Shown: one piece after another, positions 6,780 to 61,742 of the stretch | Layout: the number at the start of each line of letters is the position of its first letter | How positions within the stretch are numbered: the first letter of the stretch is position 1 | NCBI GenBank assembly: GCA_031396445.1 | Contig: JANNKU010000028.1 | Span: 20,651-84,650, forward strand | Length of the DNA: 64,000 bases | Source of the DNA: Deltaproteobacteria bacterium | GTDB lineage: Bacteria; Myxococcota_A; UBA9160; PR03 | Direction of reading: 5' to 3' | Position numbers and translations under genes: made by a program | Notes under the pieces: generated by a model | The model's database searches: none | Told to the model about the DNA's origin: nothing | Seen by the model: the letters and a program-made list of their open reading frames with translations, nothing else

Positions 6780-7433
6780 CTAGCGTTCCCGGGTTCCGGA
6801 TTGCATCGGCACGAGCCCCGCCTCGCCAAGTACCTCAGCGATTTGCTCCGCGTCACGACGCGATGCAGCCCAGCGAATCATGCCGCCCGTGGGTCTGCCG
6901 TGTTCGTCGCAGCGCCGTACCAGAAACCACAGTCCAGGCTCCGCCCCTCGCGGGGTCTGCTCGATCGTTCCGGCTTCCTCGACGCAGTAGGCGAGACCCT
7001 TCTTCCACGAAAGCCCGTCGCGCGATTCCCATCCCGGCATATGCGGGGCGAGACGCGCGATCGCGGAGTGCACCAGGAACTCCGAGCGCGACATGCCCGA
7101 GGTGCGCGCCCCGATGTCGATCTTGCGCAGACTCCTGGCAGGCGTCGTTATGTTGATCCGCGTCATCTTCTCCGGCTTCAGCGCCAGGTCCACGAGCACG
7201 ATGGCGGCGTCTTTCGCTTCTGCCGCCTCGCGCACTTCGTCGAGCGTGCTCGGATCGGGGAGCGGAGCTCCGTCTTCGAGCATGCCGCGCGCGTGAAACT
7301 CGAGCGCGTCGGACGCGAGCTTGCGCGCCTCTTCGAGCGTCGCGCCGGCGGTCACGCATCCCGGGAAATCGGGGAAGCTGACGCCGTAGTCGCTGCCCAC
7401 TTCCTTGTGGATGAGAGCGATGTTGGTCGCCAC
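6780..7433 (-). CDS. HicB-family antitoxin-like protein (HicB fold + RHH) with an extra C-terminal domain of roughly 85 aa of unknown function
   Basis: GTG at 7433 is preceded by GGAGGA 7 nt upstream. HicB-like core: IALIHKEVGSDYGVSFPDFPGCVTAGATLEEARKLASDALEFHARGMLEDGAPLP. RHH-like segment: INITTPARSLRKIDIGARTSGMSRSEFLVHSA. An unrecognised tail follows (PGWESRDGLSWKKGLAYCVEEAG...WFLVRRCDEHGRP...). Confidence 0.7.
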   Translation of the reverse strand: MATNIALIHKEVGSDYGVSFPDFPGCVTAGATLEEARKLASDALEFHARGMLEDGAPLPDPSTLDEVREAAEAKDAAIVLVDLALKPEKMTRINITTPARSLRKIDIGARTSGMSRSEFLVHSAIARLAPHMPGWESRDGLSWKKGLAYCVEEAGTIEQTPRGAEPGLWFLVRRCDEHGRPTGGMIRWAASRRDAEQIAEVLGEAGLVPMQSGTRER

Positions 7434-7722
7434 GCGCCGTCCTCCCCAGGCTCTTTCCGGTGATTCCGGCCCGCTTCGCGATGCTCGGAAGTCAGCGGAC
7501 GTGTAGAAGCGGAGCGGTGAAATTCTCTCCGAGCGCCCGCCGACCGTCACCATCCAACGCACGATTATGCTGGTCATGCTGCCGCCCAGATAGGCGTCGG
7601 CATAGTGGATTCTGATCGCGTGAGCCCCAGCCGGCCCGCGGGAGGGTGCCCGGGACCGTCCTCGCGTCAATTCCACTTCAATCCCCAACCAAACGCTCGG
7701 TAAATCCCCTTATCATCGGCGA

Positions 7723-10663: not shown

Positions 10664-10709
10664 CGACGAGCGCGAACTCGCAGTGCTCGTCAGGTGATAG
10701 CCTGCGCGC

Positions 10710-13076: not shown

Positions 13077-13217
13077 GAAAGGGGACGGTCCTCGAAGTGA
13101 CTGGCTGTCGACTGGAGGGACAGACTTGGGTGAAGCATGTCCCTGTAGTCATCAGCCAGTCACTTCGAGGACCGTCCCTAAAGTGACTCCAAAGTGACTG
13201 GGTGATGACTACAGGGA
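13072..13217. repeat. Foldback (MITE/REP-like) element, family A, copy 1
   Basis: 26-bp perfect inverted repeat: gggacggtcctcgaagtgactggctg (13082-13107) against 13153-13178. Nested inverted pairs: gggaca...tgtccc and ccctgtagtcat...atgactacaggg. It shares GGTGAGAAAGGGGACGGTCCTCGAAGTGACTGG with 61604.. and 48709... The TGA stop of the ArsA gene (13074-13076) lies inside it. Confidence 0.9.
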
Positions 13218-13248
13218 CGGGCTTTGAGGGATGAGCGGGGTTTTGTGA

Positions 13249-14010: not shown

Positions 14011-14314
14011 GCCAACTCGCGGACCTCCCTCCCCGGCCGACTCTCGCCCCCCCCGTCCTGTTGAGTTCGGATGAGATCTGGAAGAGAACCCGGAGTGGCA
14101 AAGTGCCTCCGGGTCTTCGGCAACCGGCGCGGATGCACGCGAGCTGCGTGGTCACGAGTAAGAAAGCACTCGCGTAATCCGCCCGTCCTGCCGAGGAGAT
14201 TTGCCAAAACCGCGAGCGACCGGCGTTCGAGGCGAACGCTGGCGCCCCGCAGACAAGGAGCTCCGCGTCGGCGATCTGCCGCGCGAGGGCTCGAAGGCAG
14301 GGGGAACGCGTCCC

Positions 14315-15886
14315 ATGGTGCGGCGGAACACGAATCGGCAGACGGAGTTCGCTGTCTCGCGGTCGAGCGCTGGGACGCGCGCGATCGTCGCGGCAGCCAT
14401 CGCGGCGCTGAGCTTCAACGCAACCGGCGCAGGCGCCGCGACCGTCTCGGAAGTGCGCGTCGGTACCCACGACGACGGGCATACCCGCATCGTCGTCGAG
14501 CTCGACTCGGCCGCGGGCTATCGCCTGCAAGCGCCGAGCGAAGGGAAGGCGCCCGAGCTGATCGTCGATCTCGACGCCACCAGCATCGAGCGCGACGTCC
14601 CCTCGAAGAGCCGCGTCGTGAAGAAGGTCCACGTCGAGCCGACCGCCAATGGTTCGACCGTGCGCATCTCGCTCGCAACGGGCGACGTTGCGGTGAAAGA
14701 GATGTTGCTCGCGAACCCGCCGCGGATCGTGCTCGATCTGAAGGCGCGCGGTCCGATCCCGAAGAGCGATGCCGTGGCCGACGCGGCCGCCGAGACTTCT
14801 GTTGCCGCGGCGAGCCCCGAGAAGGTGGCTCTCGTGCCGCCGACACCGGCGAAGGTCGAAGCGCCGAAGAGCGAGCCGGTCGTCGTCGCGGCTGCCGAGC
14901 CCACGCCGGTCGTCGAGAAGCGCGAAGCGCCGCTCCAGCTCGAAGCGCCGCCGTCCGCAGTGGCGAAGCCGTCGAACTCCGCTGCGCCGTCGCAAGCGAA
15001 GCGCGACGCGATGCCGCCGCCGCCCACCGATCCGCAGCCCGAGTTCGAATCGACTGCCACGGAACCGGCGGCTGCAAAGCCCACCTTGATTCCGCCCGTC
15101 GATCGCGAGAAGAGCAGCGCGCAGCAGACGTCGCCCGCGACCTCGATCGCCGCCGCCGCCGAAGCGCGTCGCAAGGCGATCGCCGAGAAGGCGCAGAGTT
15201 CGAGCAGCGAATCGCTGATGGATCTCGCGATGAGTCCCATCGGACTTGGCGCGATTGGCGCCGTCGTGCTGCTGCTCGCGATCGTGGTGATGCGCCGCCG
15301 CCGCAGCGCGGAAGACGAGGATCCGCTCTACACCGTGATGTCGGCCGACGATGCCGGCGTGGGTGTCTCGATGGACGCCGCCTATCCGGTCACTGACGAG
15401 GCGGAGTTCCGCACTCCGGTGCTCGCGAACCTCGGCCCCTTCGATCCCGATGCGTTCGAAGAAGCGTCCGAACCGGCGATCCGCGACAACGGACCGCGTC
15501 AGCTCGCACTCGGCAGTGCGCCGATCGTGAGCGAGCCGGAAGCGAGCGTGATGCTCGGCGACGACTCCGACGCGGACTCGATCTTCGCGGCGGAGCCCGA
15601 AGTGATCGCATCGGCCGTGCCGGTGATGGCGCCGGCCTTCGAGCCGACGCCGGTCGCGCCGCATGTCGCGCAGATTTCCGCCGAGGTCGAGCGCCGCGTA
15701 TCGGAGCTCGAACGCCGCCTCGAACAACTCACCGAAGCGCGCGAGCGACTCGAACGACAGGTCGCAGCGCAGACCGAAGAGCTGCGCGTTCAGCGCGCGG
15801 CGATCGCTCGCACACAGCGCGTCGTGCGCACGATCGCAAAGACGGAAGACATGGCGACCGAGCCGGTGCCGCGGGCCAACGCATGA
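14315..15886 (+). CDS. AMIN-domain protein with Pro/Ala/Glu-rich linker, one TM helix and a C-terminal coiled coil
   Basis: Frame of track ORF 14201..15886; I prefer ATG 14315 (MVRRNTNRQ...). AMIN signature: VSEVRVGTHDDGHTRIVVELD...PELIVDLD and NGSTVRISLA...PPRIVLDLKA. TM: IGLGAIGAVVLLLAIVVMRRRRS. Heptad-rich tail: VERRVSELERRLEQLTEARERLERQV. Confidence 0.75.
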   Translation: MVRRNTNRQTEFAVSRSSAGTRAIVAAAIAALSFNATGAGAATVSEVRVGTHDDGHTRIVVELDSAAGYRLQAPSEGKAPELIVDLDATSIERDVPSKSRVVKKVHVEPTANGSTVRISLATGDVAVKEMLLANPPRIVLDLKARGPIPKSDAVADAAAETSVAAASPEKVALVPPTPAKVEAPKSEPVVVAAAEPTPVVEKREAPLQLEAPPSAVAKPSNSAAPSQAKRDAMPPPPTDPQPEFESTATEPAAAKPTLIPPVDREKSSAQQTSPATSIAAAAEARRKAIAEKAQSSSSESLMDLAMSPIGLGAIGAVVLLLAIVVMRRRRSAEDEDPLYTVMSADDAGVGVSMDAAYPVTDEAEFRTPVLANLGPFDPDAFEEASEPAIRDNGPRQLALGSAPIVSEPEASVMLGDDSDADSIFAAEPEVIASAVPVMAPAFEPTPVAPHVAQISAEVERRVSELERRLEQLTEARERLERQVAAQTEELRVQRAAIARTQRVVRTIAKTEDMATEPVPRANA

Positions 15887-15943
15887 TTTTCGCACCACGG
15901 CCGCAGACGGCCGCGCGCTACTAAACCGAAATAGGATCAGGGG
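15882..15943 (-). repeat. Hairpin repeat, family B, copy 1 (diverged)
   Basis: The reverse complement reads cccctgatcctatttcggtttagtagcgcgcggccgtctgcggccgtggtgcgaaaatcatg, which aligns with the copies at 42.26, 46.47-46.63 and 47.35-47.49 kb. The TGA stop of the AMIN gene (15884-15886) lies in its TCATGA-like end. Confidence 0.75.
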
Positions 15944-15978: not shown

Positions 15979-16284
15979 TCAAATCTCGATGCGCCCGCCT
16001 GCGTCACAACGCGCTTCGATCGGCGGCGCGTAGGTCTCGGTGCTGGGAAGCAGCTCCTGGTAGATGACGGAACCCGAAGCGGCGCAGATCGGGACCGTCT
16101 GACCTTCCGTGAGCGACCCTTCGTACAACCACGTCGTACATTCCGCAGGCGCGCTCGCTTCGCAGACACGAACCTGCGTCGAAGACGGGTCGGCATCGAT
16201 CTTCGTGAGCTGGCAACAGACCGCCTGCGCCGAACCCGATTGCATCGCAAAGAAAAGCGCAACCATCACTCTCGAAATCTTCAT
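15979..16284 (-). CDS. Small secreted Cys-rich protein (101 aa, 6 Cys in the mature part)
   Basis: Internal ATG at 16284 of track ORF 15979..16596 is preceded by GGAGGA 5 nt upstream. Signal peptide MKISRVMVALFFAMQSGSAQA. Mature part: VCCQLTKIDADPSSTQVRVCEASAPAEC.... Divergent from the giant-protein operon. Confidence 0.7.
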   Translation of the reverse strand: MKISRVMVALFFAMQSGSAQAVCCQLTKIDADPSSTQVRVCEASAPAECTTWLYEGSLTEGQTVPICAASGSVIYQELLPSTETYAPPIEARCDAGGRIEI

Positions 16285-16363
16285 CGTTTCCTCCGATTCT
16301 TGATCGTCGAATCTACGCGCTGCGCGTTGACACAGAATCCATTCACCGTAGCATGCGCGCCGC

Positions 16364-16783: not shown

Positions 16784-19700
16784 TTGACCGCTCCGGGTTT
16801 GACGAGCGTTCATCTGCTCAACGCCGCCAACCAGGGCTGGTACTTCGGCGTCCGGATCCGCCACACCCTCGGCCCCAAAACAAAAGCGAGCATTGGCTTT
16901 CCGGTGAGCCCGCCGCCCGCCGGTATCGCGGCCACGATTGCAATCTCGACACCCGCCGAAGCAGCGCTCTTTGTGCAGAGCGACGTTCCTGTTGCTGGAA
17001 CCCTGACCGGGACGACGCCCATCGCCGTCACCGTGAATGGCATCTGGGCCTACCTCAGTTCGGGATCCGTCGGCTTTCAACGCACCCTCACGCTGACCGA
17101 CGGCACGCACACGATTCGCGCGCTTGCGGGCAACTCTTGGGGGCACATGGGCGATGAGGTCACGGTCACAGTCGATACGGTCGCGCCCGTCATCTCCATC
17201 GCGGCGCCAGCCGCCGGAACGCTCACGACTGGCGACTCGATCATCGTCTCGGGAACAGCGACCGACGCAACGAGCGGCATCGCGAGTGTCGTCGTAAACG
17301 GCGTCTCGGCGACACTCGTTGGGAGCGCCTTCAACGCATTGGTCCCGCTCGCGCTCGGCGCGAACTCGATCACGGCGACGGCGACGGATGTGGCGGGCAA
17401 CACTGCGGCTGCGTCCAGGAGCGTCACGCGCGGGATCACGCCGACCGTTGTCATCACCGCGCCTGCTGCAGGACTTCTCACGAACCAGACTCCGATCGCG
17501 GTCACCGGAACTGTGAGTGGCACCGTCCCCGTCACGGTGACAGTCAACGGCGTTGCGGCGACCGTCACGGGCGAAACGTGGACCGCGAGTGTCGCGCTCG
17601 GGGAAGGGAGCAACACGCTCAGCGCGAGCGCGGTGAATGCGTTTGGCAATGGCAGCAGCTCGGTGGCGGTGACGCTCGACTCGACTCCGCCGCTCGTCTC
17701 GATCGCCGCGCCCGCAAACGGGACGACAGTGACGAGCCAACCGATTGCAGTGAGCGGAACGGTCGCCGACGCGAGCGCGATCGCATCGCTCCACGTCAAC
17801 GGCGACCCCATCGCCGCGAGCAACTCGTTCGCGACGACTGCCGCTCTCGCAACCGGCTCGAACACGATCGTCGTCGAAGCTACTGACGCTGCGGGCAACG
17901 CCGGCTCTGCCTCGGTCGCTGTGACCTACCAGCCGGCGACGTCGCTCTCAATCGAAATTGAAACGCCTCCCGCTGGCGCCCTCTTCTCGAAGGCCGAGGT
18001 CGAGGTCGCGGGCGCCGTGAGCGATCCGGTCGCGTCGGTGCGCGTGAACGGTGTACTCGCGACTGTCACGGGCGAGCGGTGGGTCGCATCCCGCGTGCCG
18101 CTCGCGGAAGGCCCCAACACGCTCACGGCTACGGCGACACGCGGAAACGACAGTGCAGCGGCAGCCGTCGCCGTCACGTACAACGCGCCGCCGCAGGTGG
18201 TGATCACGTCGCCCGCCGCGGGTGCGCTCTTTCGAACCGATGCGACCGATGTCGAGGGCGTCGTCGATGATCTCGCGGCGTTCGTCGATGTGAACGGCGT
18301 CATCTCAAGCGTCGGCGCGGGTGGTCGCTTCGTCGCGAGCGGAGTCGCGCTCGCACCCGGCGACAACACAATCATCGCGCGCGCCATCGACACGCTCGGT
18401 GCGAAGGGCACCGACTCGGTCGCCGTCCTGCGCGACGACGCCGCGGCTGGTCGCACGCGCCTCGTGATCCGCGAGAGCAACAGGTGGGTGGAGCCCTTGG
18501 AGGTAGTCTTCGCGAGCCTCGGTGATTGGGATGAGAGCCTTCGCGTCGGCAACGATCTAGGAACCTTTCCGCGGCCCTACGACATCGGCCGCGAGCGATT
18601 CCAACCGGTACCCGACGTCCCAACGGTTTATCCCGGGGAGCAGGTCTTCCTGCTCTCGGAGGAAGCTGGAGATGTCGACTTCGTGTCATTCCTCGGCCAC
18701 GAGACGGCAGCGCATCTCTCCCAAGCGGGAGTGTCGACGTTCCCGATGGAAGACCTCGGTATCTACCTCCCGCTCGAGATGCTCGCGTTGCCGGAGGTTC
18801 TCGAGCCGGGCGACTTCGAGCCGCGCTTCTTCGCGGTCGGCGACTCGCTCCTTGTCGCTTGCATAGTCGACAGTTGCCCGCCCGGCTCCATCGAGGGTGG
18901 ACGCGTGCGGCTGCGGGCAACCCAAGACGGTGTGCAGCGCGAGATCGCTCTCGCTGTCGATGCGAGACGCCCCGAGTTCGAGTTCTTCTCGCCGGGCGGC
19001 AGCTCCGTGATCGCCGGTGGTCTGGTCACGGTGACGGGCGTCGTCCGCGACGCGGGTCCGCTGCTCGACACGGTGTCCTACACGGTGTCCGATGAGTTCG
19101 GCATCGTCGTGTACGAGGGGCTCGTTCCGCTCCTCGTCGATTTGATCGATGGACCGAGCCCGGCGTTCCGCGGCCGCTTCGCGATCCCTGATCTCGTGCT
19201 CGCCAATGGACTCCATTTCGTCGAGGTGACGGCCTGGGATTCGCTCGGCAATCGGCGGATCTCGGGCACCGAGTTCACGATCGACGCCGATGCGCCAGCC
19301 GCCTCGCTCTACTCGCCTCTCGACGGCTCGGCATTCGTTGAGAGCGAAGTCCAGGCATCGCTCAACTTCGGAGCGCCGACGACAATCGTTTCCGTGAACG
19401 AAGTCCCCGACGGCCGGAGTTTCCCTGCCGGGATAGCCGCCAACGTCCTCACGCTGCCGCTCACACTCGGCCCGAATCTCGTCGAAGTCGAAGTACAGAA
19501 CAGCGCCGGCGTCTTCCTACTCTCGTTCACGCTGCACCGCGTGAGCGAGCAGCGCGAGGTCCGCATCATCGCGCCCGTCGCCGGCAATCTCGTGAACACG
19601 CACACCCTCACCGTCATGGGCACCGTGCCCCTCGGCGCCCCCGCCGTACTCGTGAACGGCGTCCTCGGCGCGATCGCGCCCGACCGCGTGTCGTTCACGG

Positions 19701-22534
19701 CGACGATTCCGGTTCCCTCGACGGAGAACATCGTGATCGATGGCGACGTGGCGAGGAAGCCATTCGCGATCACCGCCGAAGCGCTTCCACTCGGCGGGAG
19801 CGCCACGGTCGAGGTGACGCCCGACTTCCAGTTGCCACAGTTCCGCGTCGTGCTGCCCGAGGACGGCGCGTTCACGAGCGAAGCCGCCGTGGCGCTCACG
19901 GGCTTCCTCTCCGAAGCCGCGACCGTATCAATCGAAACGCTCGATGGGCCGCTCGTGGTTTCGACCGTCCGCGACCGCGCGCGCGAGGACGCGGAGCCCT
20001 TCAATCCCTTCAACGCAAAGCAGTTCCATCGCTTCGAGCTGCCAGAGATTGCGCTCGCGACGGGCGCGAACGCGCTGACGCTCCGCGCGCGGGACCGGGC
20101 GGGGAACGAAGGCGCTCGCACCCTCACGCTGACACGGGGCGACACGAGCCTCGCGCTGGTGAGTCCTGTGTCCGGCAGCACCGTCGCCGAGCGCGTGACG
20201 GGCGTCATGGTGCGCGCGGCGGCGGACCTGACGATCGACGCATGCTTCGTCGCAGGCCGCCAGATTCCTTCGCTCGGCGGAGCCACCATCGGGGCAGGAG
20301 TCGATACGCCGATCAACGGCCTGCCGCTCGTGCCCGGTGCGAACGACGTGCGCATCGTCCATCACCGCGCGGGCGGCGCGAGCGAAGTGCTTCGCTTCCA
20401 GCTCACTTCGACGGCCGCCGACTACGCGACGGTCTCCGGCCACGTGACCGACGTGCGCACCGGCGAAGCCGTTGCCGGCGCGCTCGTCTCGATCACCGCG
20501 GGCGGCGTGAGCTTCACCGTCGCTACGGACGCCAATGGGAACTATCTCGCGCAGGTGGCGCCGGGTTCGATTGCGGTAGCGACCGTCGCCGAGGGCTACG
20601 CCGCGGCGAGCGCATCGGGCAGCGCCGCGGCAGGCGCGACGCTCGTCGCCGACGTCGGCCTCGCTTCGACCGGCGTTCCCGCAGTGGCGAATGAAGTGCG
20701 TATCCTCGTACCGCCCGCAGGAGCCGTGACCGACTTCGCGATGCTGACGGTCGTCGGCACGGTGCTCAATCCTACTTCTACTGTCACGGTGAACGGGATC
20801 GCGGCGCAGGTCGTGGGCAATCGCTTCACAGCCAAGCATGTGCCGCTCGCGATGGGGGCGAACACGATCGCGGCGAGCGCGATGGTGCTCGGGTTGCCGA
20901 ACGCGACGCGAAGTGTCGGCGTCGCGCGGTCGGATGAGCCGGTGTTGCAGGTGAAGCTGTTCTCGCCGCCGGATGGCGCGACGGTGCCGGGCGGCGGGAT
21001 CGTCGTGCGCGGCTTTGCGAGTGCGGAGACTGTGCTCGTTCAAGTCTCGGGCGGAGGAGTAGCGGTACCCGTGGAGGGGGTATTCGAGGCCGCGGACGTC
21101 GCGCTGCCGATGGACGCAACGGAGATTGACGTCTCGGTTCGAACGATCGACGGTGCCCAAACCGCCCTCGCGTCGAGTGGAGTCACCGTGGACCGCGTCG
21201 GGTCTGCCCTCGTGCTCGGCGCCGATCCCGTCAATGGGAATGTTCCGCTCGAGACCGAACTCCAGCTCACCGCCACGCTGCCGCTCATTGCCGTCGCGCG
21301 CATCGACTTCGATCTCGACGGCAACGGAGTCCTGGACGTGCTGGCAAGCGCCAGCGCGACTGCGAGTCTGACGATCTCGGAGCCGACGCTCAGGCTGGCG
21401 CGTGCCTATGCGACGACGCACTCGGGCGTGGAGCTTTCCGCGCCGGTCGCTCTGCACGCGCATCTGCCCGCGACCCCGCTCCGGAGCTTTGCCGCGGGCA
21501 ATCCCGTCGATCTAGCGCCCGGCGCGGGCAACGATCTCTACGTCCTCGACGCGACGGCTGGGCGGGTTACTCGCTATGACCAGGACGGAACGGAACTCGA
21601 TGGCTTCGGCAGCTCCGGCGCCGGTCCCGACCAACTTGCGAGTCCACAGGCGTTCGCCGTCGGCGCCGACGGTCGCTTCTATGTCGCGGATACGGGGAAC
21701 GACCGAGTCCAGGTATTCACTCCGGCCGGTACGTTCGAGCGCAGCATCGGGGCGGGAGATCTGAGCGGACCATCGGGCGTCGCGGTCGACGGAGATCTCC
21801 TGATCGTGTCGGACACCGGAGCAGGCCGGCTTCGGATCTTCCGGCTCGACGGAGCGCCAGTCGCATCGGTTCCGATCGCGAATCCTCGTGGCATTGCGAC
21901 GACGGCCGCCGGCGGCGTTCTCGTCGCGAGTCCGAGCCAGGGGCTCCGTACTTTCTCGGACGGAGTGCTCACGACGATCGCGGCGATCGAGTCGCTGCCG
22001 CCCGAGCAACAGCCCGCATCACCGGTGGATGTCGTGGAAGGATCGGACTCGACGCTCGTAGCGGGCGCGTCGACTGGATCGGTCGTGCAGTTCTGGCCGA
22101 GTCTTCGGCTGCGACGGGTGATCTCCGACGTGGCGGGCGCGAAGGCTGTGCTCACCGGCCAGCGGCGGGAGATCGAGTCGATCTATGTCGCCGATGGAAA
22201 GCGGGTCACCGAAGTCGGTCTACCCGTTCCTTCGCCGCTGCCCACGCTGACGGCGCTGAAGGCGCGACTGCTCGCGCTGGACATCGAGGGCGCGCTCGAG
22301 TGGATCTCGCCGGAGCGACGAGCGTATTTCCGCGACGTCTACGAACGGAGCGGCGCAACGTTGGCAACCGAGGCCGCTGCGATGGGCCAACTCGACATCG
22401 ATCTCTTGCGGGAAGGTCGCGCAATCGCGCTGATCCATCGCGAAGTGCAGGAACCCACGGGCCCGGTGGATCGTCAGTATCCCGTGTATCTCGTGCGGTC
22501 GGCGGACGGAAGATGGCTCGTTCTCGACTACTGA
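16784..22534 (+). CDS. Giant surface/secreted protein: at least 11 Ig-like modules, a CarboxypepD_reg-like domain, an NHL-repeat beta-propeller and an NTF2-like C-terminal domain
   Basis: 1916-aa ORF. Recurrent module: ..P..G......I.VSG.V.D.....V.VNGV.A...G..F.A.V.L..G.N.I.A.A.D.AGN.....V.VT. CarboxypepD_reg segment: TVSGHVTDVRTGEAVAGALVSITAGGVSFTVATDANGNY. NHL repeats: FYVADTGNDRVQVFTPAGTF, LLIVSDTGAGRLRIF. The track start is a TTG with no signal peptide. Confidence 0.8.
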   Translation: MTAPGLTSVHLLNAANQGWYFGVRIRHTLGPKTKASIGFPVSPPPAGIAATIAISTPAEAALFVQSDVPVAGTLTGTTPIAVTVNGIWAYLSSGSVGFQRTLTLTDGTHTIRALAGNSWGHMGDEVTVTVDTVAPVISIAAPAAGTLTTGDSIIVSGTATDATSGIASVVVNGVSATLVGSAFNALVPLALGANSITATATDVAGNTAAASRSVTRGITPTVVITAPAAGLLTNQTPIAVTGTVSGTVPVTVTVNGVAATVTGETWTASVALGEGSNTLSASAVNAFGNGSSSVAVTLDSTPPLVSIAAPANGTTVTSQPIAVSGTVADASAIASLHVNGDPIAASNSFATTAALATGSNTIVVEATDAAGNAGSASVAVTYQPATSLSIEIETPPAGALFSKAEVEVAGAVSDPVASVRVNGVLATVTGERWVASRVPLAEGPNTLTATATRGNDSAAAAVAVTYNAPPQVVITSPAAGALFRTDATDVEGVVDDLAAFVDVNGVISSVGAGGRFVASGVALAPGDNTIIARAIDTLGAKGTDSVAVLRDDAAAGRTRLVIRESNRWVEPLEVVFASLGDWDESLRVGNDLGTFPRPYDIGRERFQPVPDVPTVYPGEQVFLLSEEAGDVDFVSFLGHETAAHLSQAGVSTFPMEDLGIYLPLEMLALPEVLEPGDFEPRFFAVGDSLLVACIVDSCPPGSIEGGRVRLRATQDGVQREIALAVDARRPEFEFFSPGGSSVIAGGLVTVTGVVRDAGPLLDTVSYTVSDEFGIVVYEGLVPLLVDLIDGPSPAFRGRFAIPDLVLANGLHFVEVTAWDSLGNRRISGTEFTIDADAPAASLYSPLDGSAFVESEVQASLNFGAPTTIVSVNEVPDGRSFPAGIAANVLTLPLTLGPNLVEVEVQNSAGVFLLSFTLHRVSEQREVRIIAPVAGNLVNTHTLTVMGTVPLGAPAVLVNGVLGAIAPDRVSFTATIPVPSTENIVIDGDVARKPFAITAEALPLGGSATVEVTPDFQLPQFRVVLPEDGAFTSEAAVALTGFLSEAATVSIETLDGPLVVSTVRDRAREDAEPFNPFNAKQFHRFELPEIALATGANALTLRARDRAGNEGARTLTLTRGDTSLALVSPVSGSTVAERVTGVMVRAAADLTIDACFVAGRQIPSLGGATIGAGVDTPINGLPLVPGANDVRIVHHRAGGASEVLRFQLTSTAADYATVSGHVTDVRTGEAVAGALVSITAGGVSFTVATDANGNYLAQVAPGSIAVATVAEGYAAASASGSAAAGATLVADVGLASTGVPAVANEVRILVPPAGAVTDFAMLTVVGTVLNPTSTVTVNGIAAQVVGNRFTAKHVPLAMGANTIAASAMVLGLPNATRSVGVARSDEPVLQVKLFSPPDGATVPGGGIVVRGFASAETVLVQVSGGGVAVPVEGVFEAADVALPMDATEIDVSVRTIDGAQTALASSGVTVDRVGSALVLGADPVNGNVPLETELQLTATLPLIAVARIDFDLDGNGVLDVLASASATASLTISEPTLRLARAYATTHSGVELSAPVALHAHLPATPLRSFAAGNPVDLAPGAGNDLYVLDATAGRVTRYDQDGTELDGFGSSGAGPDQLASPQAFAVGADGRFYVADTGNDRVQVFTPAGTFERSIGAGDLSGPSGVAVDGDLLIVSDTGAGRLRIFRLDGAPVASVPIANPRGIATTAAGGVLVASPSQGLRTFSDGVLTTIAAIESLPPEQQPASPVDVVEGSDSTLVAGASTGSVVQFWPSLRLRRVISDVAGAKAVLTGQRREIESIYVADGKRVTEVGLPVPSPLPTLTALKARLLALDIEGALEWISPERRAYFRDVYERSGATLATEAAAMGQLDIDLLREGRAIALIHREVQEPTGPVDRQYPVYLVRSADGRWLVLDY

Positions 22535-42232: not shown

Positions 42233-42256
42233 CGGGCCGACTCTAGTTCACGATTT

Positions 42257-42312
42257 CAACTCATGATTTCCGCACCGGCCGCAGGAAGCGGCCGCGCCAA
42301 CACGAGTCAGGG
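42257..42312 (-). repeat. Hairpin repeat, family B, copy 2
   Basis: The reverse complement reads ccctgactcgtgttggcgcggccgcttcctgcggccggtgcggaaatcatgagttg. Located between the DUF4097 gene stop and the lnt start. Confidence 0.85.
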
Positions 42313-44760: not shown

Positions 44761-44963
44761 GCCGCCACCCGAGTACCCGCGTCCGTACAAATCGTCTCCT
44801 CGCAAACCCCCAAAGCGCGCGTTGGACGGGGGGGCGTCTCGCTTCTCTTCGGCCGACTCACCGTTCGGAGAGTCGAGCAGCGTGCGTGAGTGGCACGCAG
44901 AGCTTCGTTCTTGAATCAGGAAGGCGGCCGCGAGTCGGGCGCGAGACCCCGCAGCGGGAGCGA

Positions 44964-44992
44964 GCGTAAGCGCGTCAACCCTGCCGGTCAAC
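44964..44992 (-). promoter_or_regulatory. Candidate sigma-70-type promoter (TTGACC-17 nt-TACGCT) for the rhomboid operon
   Basis: The reverse complement of 44964-44992 reads ttgaccggcagggttgacgcgcttacgct, in the only sizeable gap upstream of the operon. Pattern match only. Confidence 0.25.
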
Positions 44993-45010
44993 AAGGCTTT
45001 CAGGTGGCTT

Positions 45011-45937
45011 TCATGCGCCAGCGAGAGCTTCGAGCGCGGCCTCGGCCTCGGGCTGCGAGAGACCTGCGAGGTCGAGCACCGGCAAGTCGATGCCGAGATC
45101 GCCGCGGATCGACGCGATTCGATCGCGACAGCGCGCGGCCGGGCCCGCGAGGATCGCTTCGCCCAACTCAGCGTCGGGCAGGGCGCGGAACCACGGGTGC
45201 CAGCGGCGGAACTCGATGGCGAGCGCTGCGTCATCGATCGCTCGACCGGGTCGCGCGAAGATCCAGATCGAGCGCCCGATCGAAGCCGGGTCGCGGCCGA
45301 TCGCGTCGCATGCGCGTTCGAGCCGGCCGGTCGCTTCGCGCACGAGTCGCGCGACGGGCGGGACGTTCAGGTCCCAGCGATCCGCGCGACGCGCCACCAC
45401 GGCGAGCAGCCGCGCGCCGGCGCCGGCCACCTCGATCGGCATCGAGCCGCCGCGCGGCAGTGGTCGCACCAGCGCATCGTCGAGCGTGACGAAGCGGCCC
45501 GCCATCGTGACGCGCTCGCCGGCCCACAGGCGCCGCAGCGCATCGAGCAATTCGTCGAGCCACGCGATGCGATCGCTCGCGGGCGGGAGCGCGAAACCGA
45601 AGCGTCGATCCGCGGGCTGTCCGCCGATCGACGCGAGAAAGCGCAGCCGGCCCGGCGCGACGCATTCCGCTGTCGCGACCGCTTGCGCGAGTCGCGCCGC
45701 GTTCCAGTGGTGCACGAGGCGGATCGAACCGATCTCGATGCGCGTCGTGCTCGCCAGCAGCGCAACCGTCGCGGTCCAGCCGTCGAGCACCGCGCCGTCC
45801 CCGCGCGACGGCACGATCGACACATCGCCGTCCACATAGGCAGCGCGGTAGCCGAGCGCTTCTGCGCGCAACACCAGCGCGAGCACTTCGCCGAAGTCGC
45901 GGTGATGCCCGCCGAGATGCACCGCGAGATCGGCCAC
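45011..45937 (-). CDS. Luciferase-like (LLM-class, flavin/F420-dependent) oxidoreductase
   Basis: Frame of track ORF 45011..46036, started at GTG 45937, which lies 1 nt after the Nudix stop. Motifs: VADLAVHLGGHHRDFGEVLALVLRAEALGYRAAYVDGD...IEIGSIRL...GGSMPIEVAG. Confidence 0.75.
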   Translation of the reverse strand: MADLAVHLGGHHRDFGEVLALVLRAEALGYRAAYVDGDVSIVPSRGDGAVLDGWTATVALLASTTRIEIGSIRLVHHWNAARLAQAVATAECVAPGRLRFLASIGGQPADRRFGFALPPASDRIAWLDELLDALRRLWAGERVTMAGRFVTLDDALVRPLPRGGSMPIEVAGAGARLLAVVARRADRWDLNVPPVARLVREATGRLERACDAIGRDPASIGRSIWIFARPGRAIDDAALAIEFRRWHPWFRALPDAELGEAILAGPAARCRDRIASIRGDLGIDLPVLDLAGLSQPEAEAALEALAGA

Positions 45938-45938
45938 G

Positions 45939-46460
45939 TCAGCGCAGCCGGCCGAGATGGCGCGCGGCATGCAACAACGCGAGGGCGCTCTTCGCGTCGG
46001 CGAGCTCGCCGCTCCACACCAGCGCGAGCGCGTCATCGAGCGACATCCGCACCAACTCGATCACCTCGTCCGCCTCGCGCCGATGCGGCACCACCTCGAG
46101 ATCGAACGCGGCAAAGAGGTGGATGCGCTCATCGGTGAAACCGGGCGTCGTCCAGATCGTCGCGAGCGAAACCAACCGCCCCGCGCGCCGTCCCGCCTCT
46201 TCTTCCAACTCGCGCGCTGCACACAATTCGGGAGCATCGCCATCGAGCTTGCCCGCAGGAACTTCCCAGATCGTGCCGCCCGCCGCATGGCGATACTGGC
46301 GAAGGAGCAGCACATCGCTCTCACTCTCGAACGGCACCACCGCCGACGCACCCGGGTGTCGCACGATGTCGAGCGGAACCGTGAGCCCATTCGGCAGCAC
46401 CGCCTCCTCGACCCAAACCGAAATGGACCGCCCCGCGTACGCCAGCTCCCGCTTACCCAA
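45939..46460 (-). CDS. Nudix hydrolase (ADP-ribose pyrophosphatase-like)
   Basis: Nudix box GKLDGDAPELCAARELEEEAG. TTG start per the track. Confidence 0.85.
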   Translation of the reverse strand: MGKRELAYAGRSISVWVEEAVLPNGLTVPLDIVRHPGASAVVPFESESDVLLLRQYRHAAGGTIWEVPAGKLDGDAPELCAARELEEEAGRRAGRLVSLATIWTTPGFTDERIHLFAAFDLEVVPHRREADEVIELVRMSLDDALALVWSGELADAKSALALLHAARHLGRLR

Positions 46461-46465
46461 AGCGC

Positions 46466-46632
46466 CCCCTTGCCCGTGTTGGCGCGGCCGCTTCCAGCGG
46501 CCGGCGCAGAATCATCAGTTGAACCCGCACACCTGCCAACTCCCCTGACCCGTTTTGGCGCGCGGCCGTCCGGCCGTAGTGCGGAACCATGAACTGGGCC
46601 GTGGTGCGGAAATCATGAGTTGGGGAATCATG
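46466..46632 (+). repeat. Hairpin repeats, family B, copies 3 and 4 plus a duplicated 3' motif
   Basis: 46466-46523: cccccttgcccgtgttggcgcggccgcttccagcggccggcgcagaatcatcagttgaa. 46541-46598: tcccctgacccgttttggcgcgcggccgtccggccgtagtgcggaaccatgaactggg. 46599-46632: partial ccgtggtgcggaaatcatgagttggggaatcatg. Confidence 0.9.
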
Positions 46633-46659
46633 CGCAGCCTACAGAACCGGAGATGATGA

Positions 46660-47298
46660 ATGGCGCGGGGCGAGGAGCGTGCGGTGACGATCCTGCTCGA
46701 GGGCGACGAGGCCGTCGCGCTCGACGGTCTCTACATGGCGGGCAGCGATCCCGACGCAGGCGGCGTCGTGATCGCGCCGCCACATCCGCTCTACGGCGGC
46801 AGCATGGATTCGCCGGTCGTCTCGGAGATCGCTTGGGCGTGCGCGCGCGCGGGACTCGCGTCGCTGCGCTTCAACTGGCGCGGCGTCGGCGCGAGCGGCG
46901 GCACATCGAGCGGCGACGCGGAACACGCACGCGCCGACTACGCCGCCGCGCTCGCACAACTCGCGAGCACGGTCGAAGGCCGAGTGCTCGCCGCCGGCTA
47001 CTCCTTCGGCGCCGCCGCGGCCGTGCGCGCCGCCGCCACCGACCCGCGCGTGCGCGGCTTGCTGCTCGTAGCGCCGCCGCCCTCGTTGCTCGATCTCAGC
47101 GCGCTCGAAGCGTGCCCTCGCGACGCGCTGATCCTCACCGGCGAACACGACGCGATCGCCCCGCCCGCCGCGCTCGAAGCAATCGCAGCATCCCTACCGC
47201 GCGCCCGCTTCGTGAAGATCGACGACGCAGACCACTTCTTCGGCGCCGGTCTCACCGACGTCGGCGCCGCAATCACGAAATGGCTGGATCGCGACTGA
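46660..47298 (+). CDS. Alpha/beta-fold hydrolase (small, single domain)
   Basis: 212-aa ORF. Nucleophile elbow GYSFGA. Motifs GGVVIAPPHPLYGGSMDSP and C-terminal DDADHFF (Asp/His). Confidence 0.75.
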   Translation: MARGEERAVTILLEGDEAVALDGLYMAGSDPDAGGVVIAPPHPLYGGSMDSPVVSEIAWACARAGLASLRFNWRGVGASGGTSSGDAEHARADYAAALAQLASTVEGRVLAAGYSFGAAAAVRAAATDPRVRGLLLVAPPPSLLDLSALEACPRDALILTGEHDAIAPPAALEAIAASLPRARFVKIDDADHFFGAGLTDVGAAITKWLDRD

Positions 47299-47345
47299 CG
47301 AAGACCCCGAGAAGCGCCGAAACACTTCGGTGCCTCCAACAACCA

Positions 47346-47494
47346 CGCCCCTTGACCCGTGTTGGCGCGGGCCCGTCCGGGCCCGGCGCGGAAATCATCA
47401 AGACGCGGTCGCAAACCTCGCAGTGCCCTGACCCGTGTTGGCGCGCGGCCTTCGGCCGCGGCGCGGAATCATGAGCTGGGAATCATGAGTTCGG
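47346..47494 (+). repeat. Hairpin repeats, family B, copies 5 and 6 plus a duplicated 3' motif
   Basis: 47346-47402: cgccccttgacccgtgttggcgcgggcccgtccgggcccggcgcggaaatcatcaag. 47423-47494: gtgccctgacccgtgttggcgcgcggccttcggccgcggcgcggaatcatgagctgggaatcatgagttcgg. The minus-strand TGA stop of the kinase gene (47483-47485) is inside the last TCATGA. Confidence 0.9.
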
Positions 47495-48760
47495 AAGACG
47501 GATCCGGAATCGACTCCCACCGCCGTTGCGATCGCTGATCACGAGCGTGCCGGACGCTTCGCCGATGATGCGCAACGAGATCGCGAGGCCGAGGCCGCCC
47601 GGACGTTCGGACTTGGTCGAGAAGAACGGTTCGAAGAGGCGACGGCGCAGCGCGCGCGGAATCCCCGGCCCGCGATCCTCGATATCGATCTGCACGACGT
47701 GGCCGAGCGAGCGCGCGGAGATGCGCACGTCGCCATTCGCGGGCGTCGCATCGAGCGCGTTGAGCGTCACATTCAGCAGCACCTGACGGAGCGCGTCGGG
47801 CGCGAGTCTGCAGGCGGGCAACGCCGGCGCGACATCGGTCGCGAGTTCTACGCCGGCGGCCGCAGCGCGATGCGCGACCAGCCGCAGCACTGCCGCGACG
47901 CCTTCCGCAATGCTGCAACCGCCGTCCTGCGCCGGTGTAGGAAGGCGCGGGCTCGCGTGATCGAGCACCAGATCGAGCAGGCGTTCGATGCGCACCAACT
48001 CGTCGCCGGCGATGTCGAGGAAGCTCTGCAAGAACTCGGGGTCGTCGCGGCGTTCGGGCAGCAGTTGCAGGAAGGTCTTCACCGAGACGAGGGGATTGCG
48101 CACTTCGTGCACGATCTCGGCGACCAGCCCGCCGAGTGCGGCGAGTCGGTCGAGGTGTCGCACATCGGCGTCGATGCGCGAGAGCCGTGCCTCCGCGATC
48201 GCGCCGAGCAGCGGCGCTTCGATGCGTCGCGCGGCAGCGTCGAGCGCGGCGAGCGTGCGCGGTCGCACCGGGGTGGCGTCGGTGCTTGCGCTGCCGAGCA
48301 GCAACACGGCGGCCGGCGTGCCCGCGGTGATCGCGACCGGAACCGCAGCGGTGTAGCCGTCGTGCAGGATCGCGGCACGCGCGGGATCGGGCGGCGCCGC
48401 GTCACACAGGTCGGTGGCACGAGTCAGCGCCGCGAGCGAGGCGTACGCGGCGGCGCTCGGCGCGCGCGCCGGTGGCTCCGCGCCGATGGCCGCGACGACG
48501 CGCGCTGCGCTGCCCGGCGCGGCCGACCACGCCGCAGCGCGCGTAGCACCGGTCGCCGTGACGAGTCGTTGCAGCGCGCTCGCGAGCAGGCTCTGGAAGT
48601 CGTCGTCGTCGCGGGTTGATGCGGCGGAGCTGCGTTCGTGCGCGCCGCGTCCGCGCGCCGTGGCGGTAGAACGTCGAGCGGGGCGAGGTGTGTCCCTCGA
48701 GTCAACCGCCAGTCCTCGAGGAGGACCGTCCCCTTTCTCACCTTTCTCGACGCGCTCCAC
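47483..48760 (-). CDS. Cytoplasmic histidine kinase (GAF-like N-terminal region, HisKA, HATPase_c); start uncertain
   Basis: H-box VAEIVHEVRNPLVSV. LLNVTLNALDAT, IEDRGPGIP, GGLGLAISLRI. No ATG lies upstream of the sensor region. The only canonical in-frame start is GTG 48760, 2 nt after the PBP1A stop. Confidence 0.75.
   Translation of the reverse strand: MERVEKGEKGDGPPRGLAVDSRDTPRPARRSTATARGRGAHERSSAASTRDDDDFQSLLASALQRLVTATGATRAAAWSAAPGSAARVVAAIGAEPPARAPSAAAYASLAALTRATDLCDAAPPDPARAAILHDGYTAAVPVAITAGTPAAVLLLGSASTDATPVRPRTLAALDAAARRIEAPLLGAIAEARLSRIDADVRHLDRLAALGGLVAEIVHEVRNPLVSVKTFLQLLPERRDDPEFLQSFLDIAGDELVRIERLLDLVLDHASPRLPTPAQDGGCSIAEGVAAVLRLVAHRAAAAGVELATDVAPALPACRLAPDALRQVLLNVTLNALDATPANGDVRISARSLGHVVQIDIEDRGPGIPRALRRRLFEPFFSTKSERPGGLGLAISLRIIGEASGTLVISDRNGGGSRFRIRLPNS
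48709..48742. repeat. Family A element, partial/degenerate single arm (copy 2)
   Basis: ccagtcctcgaggaggaccgtcccctttctcacc versus the family arm ccagtcacttcgaggaccgtcccctttctcacc. Contains the local palindrome gtcctcgaggaggac. Confidence 0.7.
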
Positions 48761-53024: not shown

Positions 53025-54494
53025 GTGACTTCCCCCGCCGGTCCCAGCGGCACTCCCTACGCGATCCTCATCGTCGATGATGAAGAAGGCATTCGCGAAA
53101 GCCTCGAGCTGACGCTCGCGGACGAGTACCGCGTCTTCACCGCGAAAAACGCACAAGAGGGTCTCGCGATCATCGAGCGCGAGAACATCGCGCTGGTGAT
53201 CGCCGATCAGGTGCTGCCCGGCATGACCGGCGTCGAGTTTCTCGAGAAAGTGATCGAGCACAATCCGAACGCGATCCGGATGATGCTCACCGGCTATGCG
53301 GACGTCGCGTCGATCGTGCGCGCCGTCAACGAAGGCCGAATCTATCGCTACATCCCGAAGCCGTGGGAGCCCGAGGAGCTGCGCGTCAACGTGCGTCGCG
53401 CCCTCGAGTCGTACTCGCTGGCGACGGAGAACGCGACGCTCGCCGCCGCGCTGCGCGACGCCAACGACCGGCTGCGCCAGGAAAATCTCTATCTGCGCCG
53501 CGAAGTGCAGCGGCGCTACGCCTTCGACAACTTGATCGGCTCGAGCCCGCCGATCCTGCGCGTCTTCGAGGTGATGGAGAAGGTCGCGACCACCGACGCC
53601 ACGGTGCTGCTCACCGGCGAGACGGGTACCGGCAAGGATCTCGTCGCGCGCGCGATCCACTACGCCGGCGTGCGCAAGAGCGGTCGCTTCGTGGCACAGA
53701 ACTGTGGCGCGCTGCCGGACACGCTGCTCGAGAGCGAACTCTTCGGCCACAAGCGCGGCGCCTTCACCGGCGCGCACGAAGACAAGAAGGGCCTCTTCGA
53801 GCTGGCCCACAACGGCACGATCTTTCTCGACGAGATCGGCGAGACGAATCTGAGCATGCAGGTACGGCTGCTGCGCGTGTTGCAAGACGGCGAGGTGCGC
53901 CCGCTCGGCGCCTCCGAAACGCGCAAGGTCGATGTGCGCGTGATCGCCGCGACCAATCGCGATTTGCGCAAGATGGTGCAAGAAGGCGCGTTCCGCGAAG
54001 ACCTCTACTACCGGCTGCGCGTCGTCGAGATCACGATCCCGCCGCTGCGCGATCGCCGCGAAGACATCCCCGTGCTCGCGCATCACTTCCTCGAGGACGC
54101 CAACAAGCGCATGAGCCGCGGCATCAAGGGTTTCACCAACGCGGTGATGGATCGCCTCGTCGCGCAGCAGTGGAGCGGCAACGTGCGCGAACTCCACAAC
54201 GAGATCGAGCGCATCGTCGCGCTGGCTGGCGACGCCGACACCATCACCGTCGAGATGCTCTCCGAACACGTGCGCGGCCGTCCCGCGAAGGACGACAGCA
54301 GCGCCGGCGGCGACGAGAGCGTCGATCTCTCCGACATGAATCTCGCCGTCGATGAACTCAAGCGAAAGCTGATCCGCCAGGCGCTCGAGGAAACCGGCTC
54401 GAAGAGCAAGGCCTCCGAGAAACTCGGGATCCCGCGGCAATCGCTGCAGAAGATGATGAAGCGGCTGGGGATGAAGGACGCGGGCGCGGACTGA
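53025..54494 (+). CDS. NtrC-family sigma-54-dependent response regulator (REC + AAA+ + Fis HTH)
   Basis: REC: ILIVDDEEGIRE...LVIADQVLPGMTG...KPW. AAA+: GETGTGKD, GAFTGA, FLDEIGE, WSGNVREL. HTH: ASEKLGIPRQSLQKMMKRLG. Confidence 0.9.
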   Translation: MTSPAGPSGTPYAILIVDDEEGIRESLELTLADEYRVFTAKNAQEGLAIIERENIALVIADQVLPGMTGVEFLEKVIEHNPNAIRMMLTGYADVASIVRAVNEGRIYRYIPKPWEPEELRVNVRRALESYSLATENATLAAALRDANDRLRQENLYLRREVQRRYAFDNLIGSSPPILRVFEVMEKVATTDATVLLTGETGTGKDLVARAIHYAGVRKSGRFVAQNCGALPDTLLESELFGHKRGAFTGAHEDKKGLFELAHNGTIFLDEIGETNLSMQVRLLRVLQDGEVRPLGASETRKVDVRVIAATNRDLRKMVQEGAFREDLYYRLRVVEITIPPLRDRREDIPVLAHHFLEDANKRMSRGIKGFTNAVMDRLVAQQWSGNVRELHNEIERIVALAGDADTITVEMLSEHVRGRPAKDDSSAGGDESVDLSDMNLAVDELKRKLIRQALEETGSKSKASEKLGIPRQSLQKMMKRLGMKDAGAD

Positions 54495-61602: not shown

Positions 61603-61725
61603 AACCGGTGAGAAAGGGGACGGTCCTCGAAGTGACTGGCTGATGACTAGAGGGACACCCTTCATCGAGGCCCGTCCCTTTTCTCACCAGCCCGTCACTT
61701 CGAGGACCGTCCCCTTTCTCACCGG
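61603..61725. repeat. Foldback (MITE/REP-like) element, family A, copy 3
   Basis: 33-bp perfect terminal inverted repeat: accggtgagaaaggggacggtcctcgaagtgac (61603-61635) against 61693-61725. Internal partial arm gtcccttttctcacc (61673-61687). Located in the divergent dacB/ogt intergenic region. Confidence 0.9.
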
Positions 61726-61742
61726 TGGTATTGTGGTCGACC

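Follow-up and report, generated by a model that had tools for sequence, protein, structure and literature searches.

A modular intergenic repeat built round a strand-specific, covarying hairpin in an uncultured "Deltaproteobacteria" lineage

How should one read a GC-rich hairpin that recurs between ordinary genes, with flanks kept in sequence and a stem that varies yet stays complementary? The question is raised by a stretch of 64,000 nt from contig JANNKU010000028.1 of a Deltaproteobacteria bacterium (hereafter the window, G+C content 68%; positions refer to it unless a locus is named), in which an earlier inspection, the sequence-only reading, had noticed a family of intergenic hairpin elements. 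As candidate roles it had offered an element similar to repetitive extragenic palindromes (REPs) and serving as a substrate of RAYTs (tyrosine transposases that are associated with REPs), a terminator or mRNA-stability element, and a small RNA family. We find that the hairpin of this element is maintained as a structure on one strand, and that its boxes and loop are maintained as sequence. The explanation that we favour, and consider probable though by no means assured, is a lineage-specific, modular, non-autonomous intergenic repeat resembling REPs and bacterial interspersed mosaic elements (BIMEs), of which a folded single DNA strand would be recognised in trans.

Architecture and covariation of the repeat unit

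The unit is modular, about 70 nt long, and consists of a GC-rich hairpin between two conserved boxes. The left module (21-22 nt, roughly ..CTCnGAGCCCCCTGACCCG) is present once to several times per unit. The hairpin module runs in order through TGTTG, GCGC as the outer stem, a single G, an inner stem of 5-6 bp, which is variable, and a loop of GTCC or TTCCN, and its 3' half comprises the inner-stem complement, Y, a bulged G and then GYGC, which gives a hairpin of 24-27 nt with 10 pairs and a 1-nt bulge on the 3' side. The right module (15-24 nt; GGAAATCATGAGTTG; GGAA(A)TCATGAGTTG) occurs one to four times per unit, at times duplicated with the 3' stem arm alone, and the hairpin module can itself recur every ~46 nt (L028 has three such units; L numbers are our labels for loci compared with the window). 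Direct GTTG(G) repeats bracket the hairpin module (CGTGTTG directly before GCGCG at one end, ATCATGAGTTG at the other), and in the consensus round the stem GGAAATCATGA follows GYGC. A covariance model built from 42 copies (R1) counted 60 copies in the window and in loci of metagenome-assembled genomes (MAGs) and 144 in metagenome loci; among these 204 copies, full units form 22 head-to-tail dimers and one trimer with a period of about 76 nt, and not a single inverted pair within 300 nt. In addition, arrays of about five tandem left modules (CCCCTTGACCGAACTCCGAGC-like) without hairpins lie directly upstream of the NUDIX gene start in L018 (~7140-7290) and L020 (~7490-7560), at the site orthologous to window ~46460, and their unit number varies between genomes.

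Complementarity of the stem is strongly maintained. In the 60 copies from the window and the MAG loci, which represent five genomes, 96.3% of the cells are paired and nine of the ten pairs have changed on both sides, and none of 500 shuffles attained any of five pairing and covariation measures. An independent set of 126 metagenome copies gave 95.6% paired cells, again with 0 of 500 shuffles reaching the observed values, and across both sets compensatory changes are found in eight to nine of the ten pairs. In the first set, pairing falls to 25-58% when the 3' partners are slid by 1-3 columns. These alignments were fitted to R1; the complementarity is nevertheless directly visible in the raw sequences.

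Stem variation is discrete, not continuous, and the classes are common to several genomes: CGGCC (38 copies), GCCGG with a TTCCN loop (26), CCGCC (25), GGCCC (14), GCCGC with a TTCCT loop (13) and several that are less common. In at least some classes, as seen for GGCCGG-TTCCN, the linker and the left modules have sequences diagnostic of the class. The outer GCGC stem is near-invariant, and its rare variants are compensated (GTTC/GAAC, GCTC/GAGC, GTGC/GCAC). The same holds between orthologous loci, where the stem is CGGCCG in L022 and CGCCCG/CGGGCG in L034, and where L024 and L092, with flanks that are ~100% identical, differ by one compensated change of a stem pair from G-C to A-T.

The two strands are not equivalent in this respect. 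Of 120 cells at the two C positions of the 3' arm that lie opposite G, 37 carry T and so form G·U or G·T pairs, whereas the two G positions opposite C carry A in only 2 of 120. Since both transitions would be equally frequent under strand-symmetric mutation, the asymmetry argues for selection for pairing on the sense strand. Furthermore, in 55 of the 60 copies with RNA parameters, and in 56 with DNA parameters, the sense strand folds into the more stable hairpin. Covariation, compensatory changes at orthologous loci and strand-specific G·U pairs together support selection on a folded single strand, and the stem covariation noticed in the sequence-only reading is real and statistically supported. 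An additional helix between the boxes (GACYCGTG with CATGAGTT), suggested by the fold of the copy at 42245, was 73% paired, no better than shuffles, showed no covariation, and was discarded.

When R1 was run across the entire window with filters off, it returned five full copies at 60-74 bits and one partial copy at 31.8 bits; no other credible copy is present in the window, the remaining scores (at most 16 bits) belonging to generic GC hairpins within genes. Pattern searches agree: the left box CCCTGACCCGTGTTGGCGCG has five matches in the window at no more than three mismatches (0.00 expected from shuffles), the right box three (0.03 expected) and the pattern GRAATCATSA five (0.30 expected). 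The copies are as follows.

46461..46532, + strand: full copy 1, 60.3 bits
46537..46608, + strand: full copy 2, 69.6 bits
46599..46632, + strand: duplicated 3' module, not a full copy; 3' stem arm and right box (CCGTGGTGCGGAAATCATGAGTTGG), then a second GGAATCATG
47344..47414, + strand: full copy 3, first unit of a dimer, 73.8 bits
47420..47494 (R1 span 47420-47488), + strand: full copy 4, second unit of the dimer, 73.4 bits
42245..42318, - strand: full copy 5, 67.4 bits
15876..15943 (R1 span 15876-15918), - strand: degenerate copy, 31.8 bits, model positions 22-61 only

Direct reading of the sequence bears out the positions originally noticed, and the count of at least seven copies has to be restated as five full copies, one degenerate copy and one fragment, as 46599-46632 is a 3' module only. 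Copy 1 abuts the start of a NUDIX gene (45939-46460, - strand) and comprises the left box at ~46465-46481, a hairpin at 46482-46507 with stem GGCCGC and loop TTCCA, and the right box AGAATCATCAGTTG at 46508-46521. Copy 2 follows head-to-tail with a period of 76 nt; its hairpin (46558-46582) has the stem CGGCCG, the loop GTCC and two G·U positions (TAGTGC), and its right box is degenerate, GGAACCATGAACTG. The 3' module behind it contains a right-box match with one mismatch (46604-46622) and lies 28 nt upstream of an alpha/beta-hydrolase gene (46660-47298). Copy 3 begins 45 nt past the hydrolase stop codon, has its hairpin at 47365-47389 (stem GGGCCC, loop GTCC), and is joined by the linker ATCATCAAGACGCGGTCGCAAACCTCG to copy 4, the hairpin of which (47441-47464, stem CGGCC, loop TT) is followed by two right modules, GGAATCATGAGCTG and GGAATCATGAGTT. 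Copy 5, with its hairpin at 42272-42297 (stem GGCCGC, loop TTCCT), sits between two co-oriented - strand genes, a DUF4097 gene (stop at 42324) and an Lnt-like gene. In the degenerate copy the hairpin (15892-15918) and the right box AAAATCATGCGTTG are intact, and the left box has decayed to CCCCTGATCC plus unrelated sequence. That copy is located downstream of a small, uncalled - strand gene (~15979-16285), the product of which (~100 aa, cysteine-rich, starting MKISRVMVALFFAMQSGSAQA...) resembles a signal peptide at its start, and the G+C content of which is below that of its neighbours.

Distribution, gene context and turnover

The family extends well beyond the window. A scan with the exact left-box pattern, for which one genome per species was taken, yielded ~40 true copies in four MAGs (JANLTC01, JAGSPS01, CAWDFQ01 and CAYGWM01) and contig QEVM01; the MAGs are labelled "Deltaproteobacteria", except CAYGWM01, which is labelled Spirochaetales. 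About 14 further exact-pattern matches in unrelated taxa came without the hairpin and were set aside as chance matches. The window represents a fifth, related species with 80-86% identity to the orthologous loci, and four-fold degenerate sites are only 57-73% identical between these genomes. A metagenome scan added 114 contigs (samples of the JGI), of which the best identity to the window is ~88-90%, and the viral contigs searched gave no match. Among the metagenome contigs are Ga0315*, Ga0316* and Ga0102851 contigs, which come from wetland and sediment projects. With ~200 further copies found by the covariance model, the family is real, as had been supposed; the copies collapse by flank similarity to ~44 distinct genomic sites. 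Each MAG has 8-15 exact left-box matches, and three of the five full window copies fit the same pattern, from which we extrapolate to roughly 25-40 copies per genome. The region covered by the window is a local hotspot of elements in all these genomes. The lineage is uncultured, and its habitat is soil, wetland and sediment.

All copies are intergenic, as originally claimed, according to gene calls and Pfam checks. Our own GC3-based caller overlooks small genes such as that at 15979-16285 (-). The flanking genes in the window are ordinary ones, encoding Lnt-like, DUF4097, Sir2, rhomboid, luciferase-like monooxygenase, NUDIX, alpha/beta-hydrolase, histidine kinase and PBP1 proteins. The 41 classifiable sites divide into 12 between co-directional genes in the sense orientation, 10 between co-directional genes in the antisense orientation, 10 convergent and 9 divergent ones; 12 sites had mixed context classes among orthologs. 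Counted by copy, ~30% lie between divergent genes, and at least four antisense placements are supported by long, high-scoring flanking genes. Relative to intergenic length, convergent regions are about two-fold enriched and divergent regions occur as expected, and many copies begin 3-45 nt past a co-oriented stop codon. Orientation relative to transcription is unbiased, which favours a reading of the strand at the DNA level.

Several copies touch the coding sequence next to them. The TGA at 15884-15886 ends a + strand gene (14201-15886), and the TCA at 47483-47485 is the stop codon of a convergent - strand histidine kinase gene (47483-48760, HisKA/HATPase_c), so that both cases of stop-codon donation put forward in the sequence-only reading hold. 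Where a convergent gene lies at the right end of a copy, its stop is often in or near the right module (~8 of 15 cases have a negative distance to the model end, the stop at 47483-47485 among them). This is most simply explained by open reading frames (ORFs) that run on, in stop-poor, GC-rich DNA, to the first stop they meet, which the AT-containing TCATGA supplies.

Comparison of orthologous sites reveals what has happened to individual copies. As automated detection of empty sites from flank projections was unreliable owing to module-number variation, our conclusions rest on alignments inspected by eye. At 42257 the window has a copy where L020, L128 and L151 have an empty site, and L012 keeps only a left-box fragment, CCGAGCCCCCTGACCG. 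Between the luciferase-like and rhomboid genes (44805-45011) lies a site that contains no copy in the window, L028, L048, L108 and L140, where a left-box-like CCACC(C/T)GAAAGCC followed by GTGTTGACC is retained; it holds a sense copy in L020 and L160 and an antisense copy in L012, with one stem class in all three, and a copy of a different stem class in L087. Downstream of this variable site a promoter-like TTGACC-17-TACGCT is conserved (window 44830-45000, sense on the - strand; L012 870-1060; L020 5680-5880), and behind it ~200 nt of GC-rich leader, conserved across species at the intergenic level, precede the rhomboid gene and may form a structured 5' untranslated region.

Both sides of the hydrolase gene are equally informative. 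Upstream of it all genomes have copies, with one, two or three hairpin units and differing stems. A gene whose translation, read by eye, resembles that of nth (endonuclease III) lies here on the opposite strand between element and hydrolase gene in the CAWDFQ and JAGSPS lineages (L018 6425-7050; L020 7640-8000 with L004 1-300; corresponding to window 46633-46659) and is absent from the window, L028 and L048, which makes it a gene-sized indel at a repeat hotspot. Downstream of the hydrolase gene (47298-47483), four lineages carry a GGGCCC copy with hairpins identical or one base different, kept across four species despite ~34% divergence at four-fold sites; GGCCGC-class copies are found instead in L094 and L104, and an inverted GGCCGG-class copy in the group of L004, L112 and L128. 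One dimer joined by ATCATCAAGACGCGnCCGCAAAnCTCG occurs in three unrelated gene contexts, namely, in the window, behind the hydrolase gene; in L038, between pilZ and tatA; and in L002, beside a tRNA gene. Near-identical strains, with flanks that are ~100% identical, differ by right-module indels of 15 nt and 24 nt and by one whole extra unit. A larger difference is seen between L034 (5499-6032) and L022 (~6215), with flanks ~95% identical: L034 and L064 carry an extra 650 nt at the element site, comprising a gene for a 178-aa membrane-anchored protein, which is not a transposase, and a second element copy. Copies at orthologous intergenic sites have therefore been gained, lost, inverted, replaced and altered in unit number by a process at the DNA level, and resident copies also show long persistence and sequence maintenance.

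The window contains other repetitive sequence unrelated to this family. A near-perfect palindrome of ~110-125 nt (ACCGGTGAGAAAGGGGACGGTCCTCGAAGTGACTGGCTGATGACTAGAGGGAC ... its reverse complement), with arms 87-91% complementary, resembles a MITE (a miniature transposable element with inverted repeats) or a REPIN, i.e. a REP doublet forming a hairpin; it is intergenic, its copies are at 13070-13224 and 61604-61726 and in L042 at 2669-2781, and it is also present in the CAWDFQ MAG. A putative two-domain ArsA/GET3-like ATPase (10701-13076) contains an internal duplication of ~1.2 kb, two putative sigma-54 activator paralogues (5689-6708 and 53025-54494) share AAA+ motifs, and a 1917-aa protein (16784-22534) has periodic repeats of ~250 nt.

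Explanations for the family

The REP/BIME-like explanation is favoured because the hairpin is strand-specific, the loop, bulge and boxes are invariant, the subfamilies are discrete, a transcriptional orientation bias is absent, and turnover takes place at fixed hotspots. Under this explanation, we infer that a structure-specific enzyme would act in trans on single-stranded DNA, reading the hairpin, bulge, loop and flanking boxes, and that module number would change through replication slippage or recombination at the short direct repeats of the GTTG type. Resident copies probably also fold in transcripts, as REPs do, which would not define their distribution. The obvious candidate for the enzyme would be an HUH/Y1 transposase of the RAYT/IS200 type, and none was found in the element-bearing loci searched.

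Several observations weigh against this explanation. No RAYT/Y1-like ORF was detected in 1.06 Mb of element-bearing DNA by tblastn, phmmer and hmmsearch (nothing better than E=0.6), although the queries, E. coli RayT and a 120-sequence profile, represent close enterobacterial RAYTs only and not diverse ones, so that sensitivity for distant RAYTs was limited, and hmmsearch with the profile covered all six-frame ORFs of the element-bearing loci. No transposase adjoins any copy examined. Comparisons of filled and empty sites gave no clean target-site duplication, variable duplications being absent, and the element has no terminal inverted repeat. The copy number extrapolated above, ~25-40 per genome, is low against more than 100 for typical REPs, and most copies occupy orthologous positions across species, with little sign of recent jumping. 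The cases of presence and absence could be deletions between short direct repeats and not insertions, because the "empty" sites retain a left-box-like remnant, and a function for the host could account equally well for how strongly copies are conserved at orthologous sites.

As for the ends of the element, CCCCTGACC... and ...ATCATGAGTTG are not mutual inverted repeats, as those of a MITE would be, and GGTCAGGG follows a few copies inconsistently. The best tblastn match (E=0.6) lies immediately upstream of a dimer and, to judge from sequence motifs, is a protein with a PilZ domain. The genes between distant inverted copies in L046, L045, L040 and L104 are housekeeping genes (NYN/YacP-like, dehydrogenases, hydrolase), as judged by eye and by orthology to window genes, and not transposases. 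The idea that the hydrolase gene, flanked by two dimers, is an integron cassette was likewise abandoned, the gene being syntenic in all related genomes. Clean insertions adjoining a target resembling CCCTGACC or GTGTTG, if found, would define both the target and the element ends. Altogether, the proposal of a RAYT substrate finds no backing in these loci, in view of the lack of a RAYT-like ORF, of a GTAG/CGTC tag and of inverted dimers.

An alternative that we think unlikely, and yet worth serious attention, is that the element is a host-selected cis-acting RNA hairpin, i.e. a 3'-end stabiliser, a U-tract-independent terminator or an RNase processing site, spread by duplication and preserved by selection for structure in the RNA. 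Covariation that includes G·U wobbles, the many copies shortly after co-oriented stop codons, the enrichment of convergent regions and the hairpins conserved across the divergence at four-fold sites would all fit it, and such roles have been credited to REPs (PMC3733652). However, the divergent sites have no gene reading into them, the co-directional sites are split almost evenly between sense and antisense, boxes of ~20 nt and a loop conserved in sequence would be needless in a generic stabiliser, and inversions and subfamily replacement at one site require a process at the DNA level. Nor does any copy resemble a terminator: in a scan for terminator-like sites none qualified, and neither strand has a T tract behind the hairpin, where GGAAATCATGAG stands on one and AACACGGGTCAGG on the other, so that the terminator role once suggested is weak. 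A stabilising or terminating role in RNA may coexist with a REP-like nature, as has been proposed for REPs.

Instead of a RAYT, a different recombinase or transposase that is guided by hairpins in single-stranded DNA might act on the family. We rate this as improbable; it is suggested by features that differ from every described REP/RAYT system, namely the absence of a GTAG/CGTC tag, the conserved GTCC/TTCC loop and bulged G, exclusively head-to-tail arrays, in-place inversions, and swaps of stem subfamilies at fixed hotspots. If true, an uncultured lineage resembling Myxococcota would possess a structure-specific system, mobile or gene-converting, of a new kind.

It is quite doubtful that the element is a double-stranded binding site for a chromosomal protein (a nucleoid-associated protein, gyrase or IHF as in BIMEs, or a transcription factor), with the left modules as iterated sites and the palindrome as a dimer site. 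The boxes are invariant in sequence, the hairpin-free arrays of left modules in L018 and L020 have a period of about two helical turns, and copies are intergenic in every context, promoter regions included, without orientation bias, all of which would suit such a site. A sequence-specific duplex site, however, would not tolerate at least eight unrelated stem sequences that are all kept complementary, and an asymmetry by which G·T is accepted and A·C is not has no meaning in a duplex. A sigma-54 promoter (TGGCAC-N5-TTGC) was considered for the left box and does not fit, TGGCGC being without a correctly spaced GC (GG-N10-GC spacing checked by eye).

Finally, small RNA genes or riboregulators with promoters of their own are very improbable: the secondary structure is conserved, an autonomous transcript is conceivable for copies in divergent regions, and the antisense right box CATGAT resembles a -10 hexamer, with one promoter-like match at 46539-46511, but the element has no conserved -35/-10 pair inside it and no terminator, its module number varies, the flank-to-flank helix does not covary, and the small-RNA role proposed earlier is unsupported, with neither a consistent promoter nor an Rfam match. 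In Rfam the whole window gave no match at gathering thresholds, and at E<=10 the region 46400-47560 gave three chance-level matches, none of them on the elements. The promoter-like match is the sole one near the elements in a sigma-70 scan and is weak (46511-46539, - strand; GATGAT in the reverse complement of the right box as -10, TTGGCA in the linker as -35); it points toward the NUDIX gene and raises the possibility that, in divergent regions, right boxes in antisense (CATGAT) serve as a source of hexamers resembling a -10.

Comparison with known repeat systems

REPs are the best functional analogy for the family, as the sequence-only reading had suggested. They have been described as palindromes of 20-40 bp with an unpaired GTAG or CGTC tag, or degenerate forms of it, at one end of the stem; they form subfamilies with alternative complementary stem residues and frequent G·T pairs, lie near ORF 3' ends where their termini supply stop codons, and form dimers that are mostly head-to-head or tail-to-tail, most genomes having few or no head-to-tail ones (Di Nocera et al. 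2013, PMC3733652). Their copy number exceeds 100 per genome (Nunvar et al. 2010, PMC2817692). The present family shares with REPs and BIMEs a GC-rich imperfect palindrome of 25-30 nt with a bulge and a short loop, a strictly extragenic location, often less than 20 nt from ORF 3' ends, stop-donating termini, complementary stem subfamilies with G·T pairs, mosaic or tandem reiteration with short motifs, and persistence at orthologous sites.

The differences are equally clear. Neither GTAG/CTAC nor CGTC/GACG stands next to the stem on either strand, the 5' foot being preceded by CGTGTTG and the stem followed by GAAATCATGA; a conserved single-stranded box of ~20 nt lies on each side, so that the unit measures ~70 nt and not 20-40; dimers are head-to-tail only; copies number tens per genome (extrapolated) and not hundreds; and no flanking RAYT was found in the element-bearing loci. 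REPs are mostly downstream of ORFs, in unidirectional and convergent contexts; here, 9 of the 41 sites are divergent and 10 of the 22 unidirectional ones antisense. We therefore do not file the family as REPs: the behaviour of REPs is present, but the tag and the inverted dimers, two defining features that were tested, are missing, the unit is longer and the copy number is low. A literature search gave no description of this element, and none of the four myxobacterial genera looked for is named in the REP survey (PMC3733652).

In a REPIN, two REPs in inverted order together form a single long hairpin, and REPINs are linked to a RAYT that is present in single copy with REPs on its flanks (Bertels & Rainey 2011, PMC3116915). 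Like the REPIN-RAYT system, the family consists of non-autonomous, vertically inherited, long-lived populations of hairpin repeats with subfamilies within a genome; unlike in REPINs, the doublets are direct and no RAYT was seen.

Looser parallels exist with other systems. The ends of IS200/IS605 elements, together with their miniature derivatives, the palindrome-associated transposable elements (PATEs), have a strand-specific subterminal imperfect hairpin with an extrahelical base, short conserved flanks and neither terminal inverted repeats nor target-site duplications, as here; those elements, however, carry a different hairpin at each end and use a defined target of four or five nucleotides, whereas our unit has one hairpin, no definable target motif and no tnpA found near it. 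Mycobacterial interspersed repetitive units (MIRUs) and intergenic minisatellites are likewise intergenic, strain-variable tandem modules of 15-77 nt that overlap stop codons, but MIRUs are not built round a covarying hairpin and are oriented with the operon, whereas the present element has such a hairpin and no orientation bias. The integron attC site resembles it in that structure is conserved over sequence, with an extrahelical base and a choice of strand. The GTTG(G) motifs, however, are direct repeats and not complementary R''(RYYYAAC)/R'(GTTRRRY) boxes, and RYYYAAC, a cassette array and intI are all absent, the flanking genes being syntenic housekeeping genes in all related genomes.

As a case this is of an ordinary kind and chiefly of descriptive value, unless a new enzyme should come to light. 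In practical terms, the elements mark recombination-prone intergenic hotspots, their module number could serve for strain typing, and they can mislead gene callers at ORF ends. Compared with the systems above, the family widens the range of small palindromic repeats outside genes to include a high-GC, uncultured "Deltaproteobacteria" lineage, and it combines traits of REPs, i.e. covarying stems, G·T tolerance, stop donation and persistence, with the absence of the tag and of a nearby RAYT, which bears on how such repeats arise and are kept.

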